DNA of 64,000 nt from a virus (Duplodnaviria; Heunggongvirae; Uroviricota; Caudoviricetes), in the IMG/VR virus record IMGVR_UViG_3300027766_000002. One strand, given 5' to 3'. A program made the position numbers and the translations under genes. Under the pieces are notes generated by a model that was not told where the DNA came from, searched no databases, and saw only the letters and a list, made by a program, of their open reading frames with translations. Positions 12,678-62,055 of this stretch are shown here, piece by piece (position 1 is the first letter of the stretch; each line of letters opens with the position of its first letter).

Positions 12678-13166
12678 ATGTCAGAAGTTAAACTGCCAGA
12701 GTACCAAAGCATCAAGGTGGTTGGCGCTGCAAAAATCGCTTCAATCACCGGCACTGCAATCGGCCTGGATCTCCACAATAGCATTGTAGAGATTGAAGTT
12801 GGCTGCGCCTGGGTTGCTCGCCACCAACCAGAAGTCGGTGGCTACTTTGTTCGCTATGAAGACGGCTATGAGTCGTATTCACCGGCAGAAGCGTTTGAGA
12901 AAGGTTATCTGGCGCTCGCAGACGCAGGTTTCGCTGCTTCATTTGGCGTCTCGTTTGGTATCGCCATCGAGCTGCTTAAAGAGGGTGATCGTGTGGCTCG
13001 CAAGGGCTGGAACGGTAAAGGGATGTGGTTTGAGCTTCAACGCCCGGACGCTGACAGTGACATGACGCTCCCATACATCTATATGCGTACTGCAGACGGG
13101 CAGAACGTACCGTGGCTGGCCAGCCAAACCGATATGCTCAGTGAAGATTGGGTGATCGTGAAATGA
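12678..13166 (+). CDS. Hypothetical protein (DUF2829-like; a paralogue of 55985..56296)
   Basis: 162 aa. The C-terminal KGWNGKG…DW segment is shared with the ORF at 55985. Confidence 0.45.
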   Translation: MSEVKLPEYQSIKVVGAAKIASITGTAIGLDLHNSIVEIEVGCAWVARHQPEVGGYFVRYEDGYESYSPAEAFEKGYLALADAGFAASFGVSFGIAIELLKEGDRVARKGWNGKGMWFELQRPDADSDMTLPYIYMRTADGQNVPWLASQTDMLSEDWVIVK

Positions 13167-13809: not shown

Positions 13810-14859
13810 TTATGATTCGGTTTGCCGATCTTTTTTGGGATTAAATGATTGTAAGAAGCGCATAAGGAGAAAATCATCAGGGGCTTCAAAATCTACATAC
13901 CCATCAGGTTCAACAAACCCTTGCGCTATCCTTGGATGTCTCAGCGTTTCTTTTGGTAAAGCTTGAGTTGCAAACGGATTATGCAAGATGTATAGGCCAT
14001 CGGCCAGGTGCTCTACATAATCACTTTTTATTGTCTGGTTTACTCTAGGATATAGGGATCCATCAATGGGAGGCGTGAACGTAGAGTAAATGGTATGGGC
14101 AGAAGGGTTGTCAGCTAGCGCCCTCACCTTGCCCCATGTTGCAAGGCTGCTATAAATAACTGCACTTACGTCTGAGTATTCAGGAGTGCAGAAAAACCCC
14201 AAATCTATATGGGCATTTTCATTTTTTATCGCTGCATCAACATTATATGAAATCATGGTATTGGAACCCGATTCTATTGTTGCTTCTTCATCATGGTAAA
14301 GACCATATAAGGTCGCTAGTATGGGTCTGGCCGCGGCAAAATGAGCAAAAGGTCGGTCAAATGAGGCTATAGCGATTACGAATGGCCTATTTTTGCATTG
14401 GGGCAATTGTGAATAACGTGCTCGCAACTTCCTAACTTTAGCAATGAAGCTATTGCTTAATCTGATCGAGCTTTCTGAATTAAATCTATTGAAGTCTCTT
14501 GGCATATCTTCATGACTAAACCCGTAAACGCCTTGTCCTCCCTCAGCTGGAAGAGCTACAGTCGCCTCGATGCAAAACGCACTCTCACTTAAAACCACAA
14601 AATCAGGAGCATCATATGAGAAATCGTTAATTAGCCCTAACTCTTTTAAGTATGCATAAATGTATAATTCCCACAAACAAGGCTCAAATGTTGTTTGGAA
14701 CTCTTTCACGAATTTATTGTCTCTATCCTGAAATCCTTTCGCCCAACCATTTATGACATCTCTCTCAGGTTGGTATTGTTCCTTTTTCATCATAATGTAG
14801 ATAGGGTGTTGCTTTTCAAACGGAACAACATCTTCAAACAGATTTAGCATGAAGCTCAT
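13810..14859 (-). CDS. Hypothetical protein (AT-rich, minus-strand accessory gene)
   Basis: 349 aa ORF on the opposite strand to its neighbours. Low GC. No motif recognised. Confidence 0.5.
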   Translation of the reverse strand: MSFMLNLFEDVVPFEKQHPIYIMMKKEQYQPERDVINGWAKGFQDRDNKFVKEFQTTFEPCLWELYIYAYLKELGLINDFSYDAPDFVVLSESAFCIEATVALPAEGGQGVYGFSHEDMPRDFNRFNSESSIRLSNSFIAKVRKLRARYSQLPQCKNRPFVIAIASFDRPFAHFAAARPILATLYGLYHDEEATIESGSNTMISYNVDAAIKNENAHIDLGFFCTPEYSDVSAVIYSSLATWGKVRALADNPSAHTIYSTFTPPIDGSLYPRVNQTIKSDYVEHLADGLYILHNPFATQALPKETLRHPRIAQGFVEPDGYVDFEAPDDFLLMRFLQSFNPKKDRQTES

Positions 14860-14912: not shown

Positions 14913-14941
14913 AAAAAAGCCCCTTTAGAGGGGCTTATTTT
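14913..14941 (-). terminator. Rho-independent terminator (minus strand)
   Basis: aagcccctttagaggggctt hairpin with a T-run on the minus strand. Confidence 0.5.
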
Positions 14942-15471
14942 GCTTTGTGTGACATTCGAACGCCAGATTGACGACGCGGCGCAATAGGTCTATTGCGTTT
15001 AAGCACTCTATTCATCGGAACCATTTGCTGGGTCTGAGCATCATAAGCATACATCTGCCCGTCTGTCGGCATAATTTGAGAACCATCAATGCTTACACCA
15101 GGTGCTACGGCAACTTTAAGAGGAGGTCTGATCGTAGCCTCGATTGAAGCTGCCGCAGGGGTTTTCGTAATTCCAACCCGCACAACTAAAGTTTCACCTA
15201 CTTGAACTCTTGTGCGTTTCTGAGCGCGAAATTTTTTTTCTACCCATTTTGCTCGACCAGCAATGACTTGTCTTTGAGTGCCGACCTGTGCATTTCCAGC
15301 CTTTTCTTGGACTAAGCTGGCAGGGACGATCTTCCCCTCATGCCGAACGTACTCGCCCGAAGCAAGTTTACGCTCAGTGATTTTAGCGGAGGTTTTCTTC
15401 AATTTACGCGTCAGCGCAGCGTAAAGTTGTTCAGCTGAAGGGTTTTCAGTAGTATTTCGTGACGATTGCAT
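14935..15471 (-). CDS. Hypothetical basic protein
   Basis: 178 aa ORF on the minus strand, within the island. Confidence 0.4.
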   Translation of the reverse strand: MQSSRNTTENPSAEQLYAALTRKLKKTSAKITERKLASGEYVRHEGKIVPASLVQEKAGNAQVGTQRQVIAGRAKWVEKKFRAQKRTRVQVGETLVVRVGITKTPAAASIEATIRPPLKVAVAPGVSIDGSQIMPTDGQMYAYDAQTQQMVPMNRVLKRNRPIAPRRQSGVRMSHKAK

Positions 15472-16000
15472 AACCCCTCCTGTGACTGCCGAGTCTATTG
15501 AATTTAGACGTCATGGGGATAGACTTGAGTCTTATATCTCGGTCTACATCAAACCCCAGAGCCGTGTCGTAAATGCCTAGAAGCTCATCTCTGGCTGCTA
15601 TCCAGAAGTAAAGCCCAGCCTTGGTTACATTGTAATGGTCATAAACTGCACAAGCAACCCCGGTCACCAAATCCTTCTTAGCGCGAAAATCAATCTGGAC
15701 ATGGGCATAGTCATTTTCACCATCAGCAAGGTCAAATGCAACAATCCAAGCGCCACTTTCAGGGATGGCAAGTTGCTTGCCGCTGTATTGCGTTTCACCT
15801 AGAAAACTTTCCAGTACAGATTGCTTGTCAATTTTAGTGAACCCAACTGTATATCTGTGGCCCGTACTTAGCCTGCCCGCGAAAAATTCTCTGGCTACAG
15901 CAATTTGAGGCTCTTCTACATCACCAAACAAATAAGGATCAAGATCGTCCGGTTCAGGGACTTCCGTTTCATCCTCAAAATCATGCCACTCCCACTGCAC
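15446..16000 (-). CDS. Hypothetical acidic protein
   Basis: 184 aa ORF on the minus strand. Confidence 0.4.
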   Translation of the reverse strand: MQWEWHDFEDETEVPEPDDLDPYLFGDVEEPQIAVAREFFAGRLSTGHRYTVGFTKIDKQSVLESFLGETQYSGKQLAIPESGAWIVAFDLADGENDYAHVQIDFRAKKDLVTGVACAVYDHYNVTKAGLYFWIAARDELLGIYDTALGFDVDRDIRLKSIPMTSKFNRLGSHRRGYAIVTKYY

Positions 16001-58399: not shown

Positions 58400-58735
58400 A
58401 TGTCTAAGTTACGCGTTTGGCACGTTCCTCAAGTGCCTATGAAGTCGTTCAAAGTTGAAGTTTCAAGCGTTGAAGAAGCCGTCAAGCTAATGGATACCTT
58501 GGCTCAGTATGATCTCTTTCAGTATGAGAATCAGATCAAGCCAGACTACTGCAACGCTTCGGGCCTGCAGCTGTATGACGAAACCCTCTCCGATGAGGAC
58601 GTCCTTGAAATGGAACTGGATGACAAATGGATCGACTGGTATCACGAGTCAGACCAAGGTTATTGGGATAACCCCCGGCAGTACCTGGAAGAGTACAAAC
58701 AGCCCAGCACCCCAGCAGAACACTCGAAGGTTTAA
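58400..58735 (+). CDS. Hypothetical acidic protein
   Basis: 111 aa ORF. Confidence 0.45.
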   Translation: MSKLRVWHVPQVPMKSFKVEVSSVEEAVKLMDTLAQYDLFQYENQIKPDYCNASGLQLYDETLSDEDVLEMELDDKWIDWYHESDQGYWDNPRQYLEEYKQPSTPAEHSKV

Positions 58736-58737
58736 AT

Positions 58738-59340
58738 ATGGACATCATCATCGACAAAGCTCGCACTTATGCGACCGCTGCTCACGGCGCTGTTGGTCAA
58801 CGCCGCAAGTACACTAACGAGCCGTACATCACCCACCCAACCGCTGTTGCCGAGCTGGTTCGTGCGCATGGCGGAACCAGAGACATGATTGCGGCCGCGT
58901 ATCTTCACGATGTCATTGAAGACACTCAGTTGACCTTTGACGATCTGAAAGAGGCGTTTGGCGAGAGTATTGCCTGGAAGGTTGACGCGTTGACCAATAA
59001 AGCCGGCAAAGAAGATGGCAACCGCGTACAGCGTTTCGTTATCAACTGCCGCGGGCTGATTAATAGCCTCGATGAAGAAACGATGGTGATTAAGCTGTGC
59101 GATCTGCTGCATAACACCTCTTCCATCGTTGAGCATGACCATGGATTCGCTGCGATCTACCTCGCTGAAAAAGAGTTCATGATGGATGAAATCTTCGGCC
59201 TGATGGAAGGCGGTCTGGCCGACATTGTCCGCGCAAAATTAGTCTGGGGCTATGAACAGTTGAGCACCAGCTTCAAGGCGCGCCATTTGAAGCATCTGCG
59301 CACCATCCAGACTGCGTGGAGTGAACAAGATGCAGCATGA
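58738..59340 (+). CDS. SpoT/RelA-like HD-domain hydrolase (small alarmone hydrolase-like)
   Basis: YTNEPYITHPTAVAELV…AAAYLHDVIEDT matches the (p)ppGpp-hydrolase HD signature (…GEPYI.HP..VA…LHDvVEDT). 200 aa, with no synthetase domain. Confidence 0.55.
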   Translation: MDIIIDKARTYATAAHGAVGQRRKYTNEPYITHPTAVAELVRAHGGTRDMIAAAYLHDVIEDTQLTFDDLKEAFGESIAWKVDALTNKAGKEDGNRVQRFVINCRGLINSLDEETMVIKLCDLLHNTSSIVEHDHGFAAIYLAEKEFMMDEIFGLMEGGLADIVRAKLVWGYEQLSTSFKARHLKHLRTIQTAWSEQDAA

Positions 59341-60070
59341 GACCACCAGCACCCTCGATCGCCAGGCATTGATGGAGACGTTTCTAAAGGGTGTTCCAAC
59401 CGAAGAGCTTCTCAACTACGACATTAACAGTTGGTATGCGCACAAAGCGCAAGAGCAAGCCGAGGAAATGCGCGATGAAATGGACTCACCCGCTGGTGGA
59501 CTTTTGAAATTCCTCAGTAGTGGGCCGATGTCAGGTATGGCAGCAATGATGTTCGCCAGGGAGTTTAAGGACACACCGGCCACTAACTATTATGAGCTGG
59601 TGTATCAATTGCCTGAATTGGGGGTTTTCACGGTCACTATCCAACGTAATGATGGAGAGACGCCGGCTCTTCAATTGGCCGCAGCTAAAGACCGTATTGC
59701 CATGCTCGAAGAATCTCAAGCACAGGTGATTCAGGCGCGTGATTTGTACAAGCAGAGCTGGCAGCAGTCATCTCTACAATCGATGTCACGATCATTCCGC
59801 GAGGCAGTAAGAGCTGCGCGCAAGCTGTGGCTGGATGAGAATGATCCAAAGGACGGCACTGACTGCGTCACTCCATTCGACCAGTTTCTATACACGGAAG
59901 TTGTTTCTGGTGAGGGTGTCGATTTGCCAGACCTCTTCGAGCTGATGGAGTGGGCGAAATACCCAGCCTATGGGCGCGATCTCAACTCAGTGGCCAAGGG
60001 TAAGATGTCACGTCTTATTCTGGCCGCAACCGGTTTGGGGGAGGCGTCACTTACAGTAAGCGATCGGTAA
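59330..60070 (+). CDS. Hypothetical protein
   Basis: Its ATG overlaps the upstream TGA. 246 aa. Confidence 0.45.
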   Translation: MQHETTSTLDRQALMETFLKGVPTEELLNYDINSWYAHKAQEQAEEMRDEMDSPAGGLLKFLSSGPMSGMAAMMFAREFKDTPATNYYELVYQLPELGVFTVTIQRNDGETPALQLAAAKDRIAMLEESQAQVIQARDLYKQSWQQSSLQSMSRSFREAVRAARKLWLDENDPKDGTDCVTPFDQFLYTEVVSGEGVDLPDLFELMEWAKYPAYGRDLNSVAKGKMSRLILAATGLGEASLTVSDR

Positions 60071-61378
60071 TTCTTTCAGACATGTGGTGTAGCGCGGGGA
60101 AAGCATCTCGCGCTTCATCTGCCATTGGTTATCAACCCCCTGCCCTGCGAACCAAACCTTTCCCAACCCTGTTTTATTAATCTTGTCGATGACACCCATC
60201 AGCTCATCTGCTTTGGCGCGCGGCTGATGTTCGCTAAACATATCGAGCTGAGCGACACCGCTCTGGAAGAAGTCGCCGAGCATTATCCCTGCGCGCGCGT
60301 AGCGATAGCCGTCACGCCAGATACCTTTCAGACACTGCATGGCAAACGCTACAATGTCACGCGTGTCGGCGGTCGGATATTCGCAGGTAATCGAAGCACT
60401 GTTGCCATATTGAAGCTCATTGGCGTAGCGGCTTGTTGCTATGAACACGGTGACAAGCCGGCAACGTGATTTTTGCTCTCTCAACTTCTCCGACGCGCGT
60501 ACGGCATAAGTGCAAACGGCATGTTCCATGTCCTCCAGCTTTTCAACGCGTTGCCCAAAGGATTTGGAGGTGACGATCTGCTGCTTTGGTGGCGGCTGCT
60601 CTTCAAGTGGGATGCACGATTCACCATTCAGCTCACGCACGGTGCGTTCAAGCACTACACCAAAATTTTTGCGGATCATTGTCGTGTTGGCCTGTGCCAG
60701 CTGAAGTGCTGTTTCAATACCCATCTGGTTTAGCCTCTTAGTTAATCGGCCCCCAACACCCCAGACATCACTTACACCGACCAGAGCCATCAGTTTGCGC
60801 TGTCGCACCGGGCTGGATAAGTCCAGCACCCCGTTTGTTTTTGACCATTTTTTGGCAGCGTGATTTGCCAGTTTTGCCAAAGTTTTACTTTGCGCAAACC
60901 CTACACCTACGGTGAGAAATGTCTCCTGTTTTATTCGATTTCGAAGCTGGTGGCCGAACTCTTCAAGGGGCATGTAACCAGAAATTCCCGATACATCGAG
61001 GAAACTTTCGTCAATGCTGTAAATTTCTTGGCCTGGCGCCATCTCCCCCATGATAGTCATCATTCGCTTGCTCATGTCAGCATAGAGGGCATAATTACTT
61101 GAAAAGACCACTACGCCCTTCTCTTCAAAGAAACGCTCGTTTTTGAATAGTGGATCGCCCATTTTTATGCCTAATTTCTTTGCTTCAGCAGATCTAGCAA
61201 CGATGCAGCCGTCGTTGTTAGAACAGACGATGACTGGTTTTCCTCGCAGATCAGGTCGGAAAATTGTCTCACAAGAGGCGTAAAATGAATTAGCATCGAC
61301 GAGGGCAAACATCTGGCTACTCTCTAAAATTACTGTACGCATATACAGTATAATAGATCGGCCTTTTCGATTAGCCAA
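60047..61378 (-). CDS. umuC: Y-family translesion DNA polymerase UmuC
   Basis: MFALVDANSFYASCETIFRPDLRGKPVIVCSNNDGCIVARSAEAKKLGIKMGDP is near-identical to the E. coli UmuC N-terminus. Confidence 0.85.
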   Translation of the reverse strand: MANRKGRSIILYMRTVILESSQMFALVDANSFYASCETIFRPDLRGKPVIVCSNNDGCIVARSAEAKKLGIKMGDPLFKNERFFEEKGVVVFSSNYALYADMSKRMMTIMGEMAPGQEIYSIDESFLDVSGISGYMPLEEFGHQLRNRIKQETFLTVGVGFAQSKTLAKLANHAAKKWSKTNGVLDLSSPVRQRKLMALVGVSDVWGVGGRLTKRLNQMGIETALQLAQANTTMIRKNFGVVLERTVRELNGESCIPLEEQPPPKQQIVTSKSFGQRVEKLEDMEHAVCTYAVRASEKLREQKSRCRLVTVFIATSRYANELQYGNSASITCEYPTADTRDIVAFAMQCLKGIWRDGYRYARAGIMLGDFFQSGVAQLDMFSEHQPRAKADELMGVIDKINKTGLGKVWFAGQGVDNQWQMKREMLSPRYTTCLKELPIAYCK

Positions 61379-61404: not shown

Positions 61405-62055
61405 TTAGTAGTTGGTAAATTGAGCATATGGAACCCTAAGCCCACCGCGAACGCCAAATGACTGCGCATATGTTGGCTGCTTTTTGCTGACGTATCGGCA
61501 TTGGATTTGAGTCCCTGTCCACTTGGTAATAAGCCCAGAGTAACCCACAACCGCGCCATCGTCAGATATGTTCCCAGGCAACGCATTCATTAAAATCCAT
61601 GGGTTAAAGTTGACATTAAAGGACACGGTGGATGAATCCACCGGTGAGTTGGCAGGAAGGTCAATAAAGCCTCTGATGCGCGGCGCAAGCTCTGCGCTTT
61701 TTGCACTCCATACCAGTTGTCCTCTAGCGTTCAAAACATCCAGATAACCACTCTGGATCGCAACGTTTCGGCTGGTTCTAATAATGCGACCACTATTGTT
61801 CTGAAAGCACCAGCCGCCAGGCATCGCGAACGCACCGGGATTTAACTGATACCAATAGAGATACCCAGGTTGTGGCCAACTGTTATTTGGTAAAAAGCCA
61901 AAAGGATAGTCACCGCCAAATGGGTTTTTGACTTGGTAATAGCCTATGTCAGTTAGGCCAGTAATATTTCTGATGTCTGAAAAAAGTGTGGTTCTATTGT
62001 CAGAATCGACCATGACCGCGCCAGCATCGTTGAATAACTCAAATCCATATGACAT
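61405..62055 (-). CDS. Hypothetical protein (paralogue of the next ORF)
   Basis: AGGAGA Shine-Dalgarno. 216 aa. Its N-terminus MSYGFELFNDAGAVMVDSDN parallels MAFGLQCWDGSGRLVVDLSD of the next ORF. Confidence 0.45.
   Translation of the reverse strand: MSYGFELFNDAGAVMVDSDNRTTLFSDIRNITGLTDIGYYQVKNPFGGDYPFGFLPNNSWPQPGYLYWYQLNPGAFAMPGGWCFQNNSGRIIRTSRNVAIQSGYLDVLNARGQLVWSAKSAELAPRIRGFIDLPANSPVDSSTVSFNVNFNPWILMNALPGNISDDGAVVGYSGLITKWTGTQIQCRYVSKKQPTYAQSFGVRGGLRVPYAQFTNY

Follow-up and report, generated by a model that had tools for sequence, protein, structure and literature searches.

A predicted PaSpo-type small alarmone hydrolase on an SSU5-type phage-plasmid and its probable part in disarming toxic alarmone synthetases

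What a phage-borne element might gain from a solitary enzyme of alarmone turnover is the question raised by a gene for a 200-residue protein in a 64,000-nucleotide stretch of viral DNA, here called the window (IMG/VR record IMGVR_UViG_3300027766_000002; Duplodnaviria, Heunggongvirae, Uroviricota, Caudoviricetes). An earlier note, made from the letters of the window alone, had read the gene product as a SpoT-like HD hydrolase that could blunt the host stringent response or counteract alarmone-based immunity. We find that the protein is a stand-alone RelA/SpoT-homologue (RSH) hydrolase of the small alarmone hydrolase (SAH) class, that its closest phage relative is PaSpo of Salmonella phage SSU5, and that the window belongs, by sequence, to an SSU5-type phage-plasmid. 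Its main selected role is, on balance, probably the disarming of toxic small alarmone synthetases (toxSAS) and CapRel-type effectors, either by (pp)pApp degradation or by removal of the 3′-pyrophosphate from tRNA. What is said below of the activity, substrates, expression timing and counter-defence role of the window protein is argued from orthology and conserved residues.

The assignment to the SAH class is carried by family and fold comparisons that agree with one another. Residues 8–130 match Pfam HD_4 (PF13328), the RelA/SpoT-type HD family, with 56.2 bits against a cut-off of 27.2 (E=4.4e-15); the generic Pfam HD family also matches (26.3 bits against 22), and PHROG 990, ‘metal-dependent phosphohydrolase’, does so with E=7.7e-38. 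NCBIfam TIGR00691 (spoT_relA) is matched at positions 4–122, the N-terminal hydrolase part (E=4.4e-24), as is the N-terminal part of the SpoT model, and the low whole-protein score for TIGR00691 (84.8 bits against a cut-off of 499) is as expected because the hydrolase is a one-domain protein. In a sequence search of the PDB, the significant matches comprise Rel/SpoT hydrolase domains, with E values down to 5e-17, together with Lmo0812, a Leptospira SAH, RelH, a P. aeruginosa SAH, Mesh1 and Aph1; the one remaining entry of the search, RalA-binding protein 1, has E=0.62. An AlphaFold2 model built on an alignment of 43 homologous sequences is a single compact all-helical domain of 11 helices (predicted local distance difference test (pLDDT) 96.6, predicted TM score (pTM) 0.91). 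When the model was compared with the PDB by Foldseek, every match at E≤0.001 was Mesh1, SAH, RelH, SpoT, Rel, Lmo0812 or Aph1. The best of these are Mesh1, the P. aeruginosa SAH, RelH and SpoT, with target-normalised TM scores of 0.74–0.80 for the small hydrolases, and the model superposes on the 178-residue Mesh1 chains over ∼180 alignment columns.

An HD enzyme of the YfbR, dNTPase, dGTPase or SAMHD1 type is ruled out, since none was matched at E≤1 in Pfam and none in NCBIfam, and no such chain appeared in either the PDB sequence search or the Foldseek fold search. The earlier note had described a RelA/SpoT-type HD signature and nothing else, and both parts of that description stand: Pfam HD_4, TIGR00691 and PHROG 990 all match, a second domain was found neither by Pfam nor in the single compact domain of the model, and comparison by Pfam, NCBIfam, PDB and Foldseek places the protein among SpoT/Mesh1-type stand-alone HD hydrolases. 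The reading frame itself is also present exactly as listed there.

In a tblastn search the best phage match is SSU5 gp099 (PaSpo, YP_006906731.1), with 50% identity over the full length, C-terminal helices included (E=5e-61). The corresponding figures are 32%, over only 115 residues, for gp220 of phage PVP-SE1, and 21–24% for Mesh1, the P. aeruginosa SAH and C. glutamicum RelH. Because SSU5 gp099 is the closest of these, the window protein is, on its sequence, assigned to the PaSpo subfamily of SAHs as an ordinary orthologue of SSU5 PaSpo.

The active site was compared with that of RelSeq by reading equivalent residues one by one from a HMMER alignment to 1vj7 (Table 1). In structural work on RelSeq and Mesh1, the equivalents of H57-D58 form the HD metal-binding dyad and those of E61-D62 the catalytic dyad, and the substrate contacts are likewise established. 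The window hydrolase has the complete metal tetrad H33/H57/D58/D122 (RelSeq H53, H77, D78 and D144), the ED dyad E61-D62, and all of the substrate-contact residues R23, K24, Y30 and N126, and these positions show no variation across the 43 homologues of the family alignment. A copy on the Cronobacter sp. JZ38 plasmid (NZ_CP017663.1, 12395–12997), which is 97% identical, carries E61G in the ED dyad, changing DVIEDT to DVIGDT. Because E61 is invariant in the 43 other homologues, this copy may be a natural loss-of-function allele.

That the reading frame is a real gene under purifying selection is indicated by shared start calls and by the pattern of substitution. The same start was chosen by PGAP in the copy on the 109-kb Cronobacter plasmid, and it recurs in the gene calls of six metagenome or Sequence Read Archive contigs that encode the identical hydrolase. 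The window gene and the Cronobacter copy differ by 23 synonymous and 6 non-synonymous changes (ratio of non-synonymous to synonymous rates, dN/dS, 0.066). A Shine–Dalgarno-like motif precedes the ATG, and the TAA of the gene upstream (58733–58735) falls within the spacer between the two.

SSU5 PaSpo neutralised all five toxSAS tested in E. coli (CapRel, PhRel, PhRel2, FaRel2 and FaRel), and the same study proposed that incoming phages could bypass alarmone-based defence by encoding such hydrolases (Jimmy et al. 2020, PMC7229694). In laboratory work the enzyme has been co-expressed to relieve the toxicity of CapRel (PMC9712102), and it likewise detoxifies FaRel2, for which removal of the tRNA modification is given as its mode of action (PMC11559606). 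In vitro, MESH1 and ATfaRel restored aminoacylation for tRNA that had been pyrophosphorylated at its CCA end (bioRxiv 2021.04.30.441581). The role against toxSAS, CapRel and (p)ppApp that the earlier note had suggested is thus the one already proposed, and partly shown, for SSU5 PaSpo (PMC7229694), and by analogy it may hold for the window protein. The counter-toxSAS idea for phage SAHs is already published, as are the family and its phage-encoded stand-alone form.

Judged by its conserved residues, the window protein is very probably an active RSH-type 3′-pyrophosphohydrolase of the PaSpo group. We propose that the site formed by H33, H57, D58 and D122 would hold a metal, Mn2+ if Rel, SpoT and Mesh1 are a guide, and that E61 and D62 would activate water for removal of the 3′-pyrophosphate from (p)ppGpp and (p)ppApp. 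The same chemistry, as reported for SAHs, could act on a tRNA 3′-CCA end to which a toxic alarmone synthetase has added pyrophosphate. By expressing the hydrolase as a solo accessory gene, the phage-plasmid would disarm abortive-infection effectors of the toxSAS/CapRel type; as a side effect, host alarmone levels would be expected to fall, so that translation and replication could continue. CapRel-type defences occur in Enterobacter (PMC13423816).

The substrate might instead be some other 3′-phosphorylated nucleotide, neither alarmone nor tRNA. Human MESH1 acts as an NADPH phosphatase, and the single best structural match of the hydrolase model is the Mesh1-NADPH complex 5vxa. RSH hydrolase chemistry is also versatile (bioRxiv 2021.04.30.441581). 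However, the SSU5 orthologue rescues cells from enzymes producing (pp)pApp or pyrophosphorylated tRNA, and therefore these compounds are at least accepted as substrates, while the genomic context of the window gene offers no pointer to NADPH metabolism. We regard a non-alarmone substrate as highly improbable.

Near matches to the 2.1-kb hydrolase region were found only in two non-mobilizable plasmids of 109–110 kb, one from Cronobacter sp. JZ38 and the other from Enterobacter sp. CP102 (NZ_CP104015.1), to both of which the window is ∼90% identical in DNA; megablast of this region against phage genomes gave no match, and SSU5 surfaced only by protein-level search. Over the window as a whole, 52.3 of the 64 kb can be aligned to the Cronobacter plasmid (87–97% DNA identity), which has genes for RepB, ParB, a ParA/MipZ ATPase, terminase, major capsid, tape measure and tail proteins. 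When proteins are compared, the window is colinear with the part of SSU5 between ∼30.8 and 86 kb, its core proteins being 50–83% identical (helicase 79%, primase 83%, ligase 74%, polymerase 81% and NrdA 77%). The identical hydrolase is found on contigs of 110,224 and 110,739 bp. On the strength of the plasmid alignment, the colinearity with SSU5 and the joint occurrence of replication and virion genes, the window is assigned to part of an SSU5-type phage-plasmid. Its host genus is likely Enterobacter and its lineage likely one of diverged Enterobacter/Cronobacter SSU5-type phage-plasmids. No tRNA genes were found in the window.

On the 5′ side of the hydrolase gene, and in the same orientation, runs a long block of genes for replication and nucleotide metabolism (NrdAB, ThyA, DHFR, primase, helicase, ligase and polymerase). 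The position of the hydrolase gene behind this block, and an active site that is the same as in (p)ppGpp hydrolases, would suit a main role in host take-over, in which (p)ppGpp made by RelA/SpoT is degraded and the stringent response is kept from throttling translation, the supply of nucleotides and the replication of the element, whether in its lytic cycle or in plasmid maintenance. A report that the stringent response restricts phage infection and that phages evolve countermeasures (bioRxiv 10.64898/2026.01.27.700999) points in the same direction. Against this, the immediate neighbours of the gene resemble counter-defence rather than metabolic genes, toxSAS neutralisation is the sole phenotype recorded for the SSU5 orthologue, and the patchy distribution of the hydrolase suits an accessory gene shaped by an arms race more than a general aid to replication. 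We consider host take-over a possible but rather unlikely main role, although it is compatible with counter-defence because one enzyme can do both.

Elsewhere in the window, a 348-residue protein matches PADLOC PD-T7-5 (E=1.4e-100) and, less strongly, PD-T7-1, so that a gene for anti-phage defence is present on the phage-plasmid. This stretch does not align to the Cronobacter relative, whose corresponding region holds a gene annotated ‘HEPN/Toprim-associated domain’, which suggests a spot of defence-gene exchange. Two minus-strand open reading frames that adjoin the PD-T7-5-like gene have no family match. PADLOC returned nothing for the hydrolase or its neighbours.

Because it carries the PD-T7-5 defence gene, the element supplies functions of benefit to its host, and the hydrolase could conceivably be another of these. 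As a product of lysogenic conversion, it would allow the resident plasmid-prophage to shield its host from (p)ppApp-synthesising toxins of competitors (secretion-system effectors of the Tas1 type), in the manner of an Aph1-type hydrolase. The element persists stably as a plasmid of 110 kb, the Bacteroides (p)ppApp hydrolase 7smg is also among the fold and sequence matches of the hydrolase, and SSU5 PaSpo neutralises FaRel, which produces (pp)pApp (PMC7229694). The gene is, however, co-oriented with the replication block and with early-type accessory genes instead of being a separately transcribed moron, and Aph1 is the weakest of the RSH hydrolase matches in the PDB sequence search (E=1.6e-3). 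Lysogenic protection is thus, in our estimate, improbable, and counter-defence against toxSAS remains the preferred reading.

The genes around the hydrolase (Table 1) fit such counter-defence, or host take-over, in a circumstantial manner. The Pfam GP17 family, to which the product of the upstream gene belongs, carries the label ‘superinfection exclusion gene product 17’. In phage P22 itself, protein 17 releases the exclusion exerted by heterologous prophages such as Fels-1 (PMC4837284). The gp17-like gene ends 2 nucleotides before the hydrolase ATG. It is found in the related contigs L005–L007 and is missing from L003, L004 and the Cronobacter plasmid; because it is present or absent among otherwise near-identical elements, it is a variable cassette that was recently gained or lost. 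A Tad2-like gene lies farther upstream, and its DUF2829 family is that of an anti-Thoeris sponge. A second protein, of 162 residues, is encoded elsewhere in the window, where the DNA is ∼93% identical to a stretch of the Cronobacter plasmid with a PGAP-annotated DUF2829 gene. Two DUF2829/Tad2-like genes thus appear to lie on one element, both possible anti-Thoeris sponges by their sequences. The co-directional array of the hydrolase also holds a TerB-like gene, a DUF3927 gene and a Dam methylase gene, and a DUF4942 methyltransferase gene is found further downstream in related contigs.

Table 1. Positions in the window of the hydrolase gene, its predicted active-site residues, and neighbouring and other genes
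Feature	Position	Strand	Basis or remark
Small alarmone hydrolase coding sequence, predicted PaSpo-type RSH hydrolase domain	58738..59340	+	ATG start, 200 residues plus stop
Shine–Dalgarno-like GAAGG	58726..58730	+	7 nucleotides 5′ of hydrolase ATG; read from sequence
R23-K24, equivalent to RelSeq R44-K45, substrate phosphate contacts	58804..58809	+	phmmer alignment to 1vj7
H33, equivalent to RelSeq H53, first metal ligand	58834..58836	+	1vj7 alignment; Y30 (RelSeq Y50) just upstream
H57-D58-V-I-E61-D62, motif LHDVIEDT	58906..58923	+	RelSeq H77 D78 / E81 D82
D122-L-L-H-N126, equivalent to RelSeq D144 (fourth metal ligand) and N148	59101..59115	+	1vj7 alignment
P22 gp17 homologue, 111 residues	58400..58735	+	PF17420 E=1.8e-46; PHROG 1510 E=1.6e-50
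246-residue protein gene	59330..60070	+	Overlaps hydrolase 3′ end by 11 nucleotides; gene calls
Tad2-like (DUF2829) gene, 103 residues	55985..56296	+	PF11195 31.6 bits against cut-off 25, E=2.5e-7; 2.4 kb upstream, same array
162-residue protein gene	12678..13166	+	
UmuC-like Y-family polymerase gene	60047..61378	−	Pfam IMS, IMS_C, DUF4113
DUF8377 / PHROG 4524 gene	61405..62055	−	
PD-T7-5-like gene	13810..14859	−	PADLOC match
Open reading frame adjoining PD-T7-5-like gene	14935..15471	−	
Open reading frame adjoining PD-T7-5-like gene	15446..16000	−	

The gene downstream of the hydrolase encodes a 246-residue protein with no Pfam match. A word search of 5.8 billion proteins returned only one close cluster for it, and a full HMMER scan of 1.84 billion representatives gave 187 weak matches in two separate modules. 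The protein is accordingly a mosaic of modules that are both small and widespread, in which residues ∼1–135 recur in proteins of 130–440 residues and a motif at ∼150–195 occurs in many proteins of 60–120 residues. A 67-residue stretch resembles SSU5_096; there is no homology to SSU5_100, the product of the gene that follows PaSpo in SSU5. Among its relatives, 3 of 43 were Ead/Ea22-like by Pfam. The AlphaFold model (pLDDT 78, pTM 0.49) consists of helices, a hairpin and one long helix, and Foldseek of this model against the PDB gave nothing below E=1. With no Pfam domain, a helical model and no PDB match, the protein does not adopt an alarmone-synthetase fold. A UmuC-like polymerase gene on the opposite strand runs towards the hydrolase cluster. 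No UmuD/S24-peptidase gene precedes it, the nearest minus-strand gene on its upstream side being of the DUF8377 family, and no umuC is annotated in the 100 kb of SSU5 that were examined.

The spacing of these genes raises the question of whether the hydrolase is a type IV antitoxin against an adjoining toxin, encoded either by the 246-residue gene or by the gene upstream, as ATfaRel is for FaRel. Given the 11-nucleotide overlap and the 2-nucleotide gap, the hydrolase and its flanking genes are probably co-translated, and SAH antitoxins do exist (PMC7229694). Yet the 246-residue protein has neither a Pfam synthetase domain nor a nucleotidyltransferase fold in its helical and hairpin model, and Ead/Ea22-like phage proteins are among its relatives. 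The gene on the upstream side encodes a homologue of P22 gp17 and is absent from near-identical elements. The flanks of the hydrolase, moreover, differ among SSU5, Klebsiella, Raoultella and one other lineage, with no neighbour conserved across lineages. No RelA/SpoT synthetase is annotated by PGAP on the related Cronobacter plasmid, and no synthetase domain was found in a Pfam scan of 10 open reading frames taken from parts of the window that have no alignment to it. The conserved adjacency to a toxSAS gene that marks ATfaRel-type antitoxins is thus lacking. Since no synthetase was found on that plasmid or in those 10 reading frames and the neighbours vary between lineages, we regard the hydrolase as a solo accessory gene; the toxin–antitoxin reading is rejected, its probability being very slight indeed. 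Lysogenic protection, a non-alarmone substrate and an antitoxin function, even when taken together, amount to only a minor share of the probability, and disarming of toxSAS/CapRel-type effectors is kept as the probable main role.

Full-length homologues of the hydrolase were found by tblastn in 166 plasmids, mostly non-mobilizable enterobacterial plasmids of 105–115 kb, and an SSU5-type primase (≥60% identity) in ∼754 plasmids. The hydrolase is common in Salmonella and rare in Klebsiella SSU5-type plasmids, with 41 hydrolase records and 49 primase records in Salmonella against 55 and 345, respectively, in Klebsiella, figures that are indicative only, as they are totals and not intersections of hydrolase and primase records. 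All of the ∼30 full-length enterobacterial plasmid matches listed, of the 166, are annotated ‘HD domain-containing protein’. Some Klebsiella pneumoniae homologues are named ‘GTP pyrophosphokinase’ in NCBI, which is a misleading name because these homologues lack a synthetase domain.

Several observations weigh against disarming of toxSAS as the main selected role. The tested enzyme, SSU5 PaSpo, is only 50% identical to the window protein, and substrate preference within SAHs is stated, for another phage SAH, to be unreadable from sequence (PMC12846349). The literature found on phage SAHs consists of E. coli co-expression, with no instance of phage rescue from toxSAS in a real infection. Judging by the E61G copy in Cronobacter, at least one host apparently allows the hydrolase function to be lost, and by the rough counts above (166 against ∼754 plasmids) the gene is present in only roughly a quarter of SSU5-type plasmids. 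In addition, a promoter and terminator consensus scan gave counts within shuffled expectation and nothing above background, and therefore no transcription unit could be defined.

A more speculative extension, which we hold to be doubtful, is that the hydrolase is an exchangeable cassette of a modular counter-defence island that includes Tad2-like, P22-gp17-like, methyltransferase and Ea22-like genes, with a patchiness that tracks CapRel and toxSAS in the hosts. The diverged 200-residue Enterobacter/Cronobacter lineage, translationally coupled to the 246-residue protein, might then have a shifted substrate range, for example one specialised for pyrophosphorylated tRNA, or the two proteins might act jointly.

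The window hydrolase does not change what is known of alarmone hydrolases or of toxSAS immunity, and its practical value lies mainly in annotation. Entries now called ‘HD domain-containing protein’ can be named as PaSpo-type SAHs with a tested orthologue. The window protein also offers a diverged natural variant, from a less-sampled lineage, for comparisons of substrate range, and its gene marks a stretch of SSU5-type phage-plasmids in which counter-defence genes cluster and could be mined.

Among known systems, the long bifunctional Rel/SpoT enzymes provide the best PDB sequence matches to the hydrolase through their HD domain (8acu, 6yxa and 1vj7, E=1e-15 to 1e-17), but the window hydrolase has none of their synthetase, TGS and ACT domains. 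Mesh1, the P. aeruginosa SAH and C. glutamicum RelH are the best structural matches, with a root-mean-square deviation of ∼3 Å over the aligned columns and the same metal-binding and catalytic residues, although these low-identity relatives are cellular housekeeping enzymes rather than genes of mobile elements. The PbcSpo-type SAHs, of phage PVP-SE1 and of Cellulomonas marina (ATfaRel), are likewise stand-alone RSH hydrolases with the HD and ED motifs in common, and they neutralise toxSAS (PMC7229694). The PVP-SE1 protein gp220, here taken as the PbcSpo-type SAH of that phage from its annotation and a weak HD_4 match, is shorter (169 residues) and has no C-terminal helices, and ATfaRel, unlike the window hydrolase, is part of a conserved three-gene toxin–antitoxin operon. 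SSU5 PaSpo is longer than the window protein (213 against 200 residues), which has a 17-residue deletion in its C-terminal region, and comes from a Salmonella rather than an Enterobacter/Cronobacter lineage. The flanks also differ, the window having the gp17-like gene upstream, the unrelated 246-residue gene downstream and the umuC-like gene. Nevertheless, the two proteins share a single RSH hydrolase domain with all catalytic residues in common, and both are encoded by solo genes that have no synthetase partner. In the two colinear genomes these genes lie in the same accessory stretch, beyond the Dam methylase gene and near that of the DUF4942 methyltransferase, and in the window and the plasmid lineages TerB and DUF3927 also precede the hydrolase.

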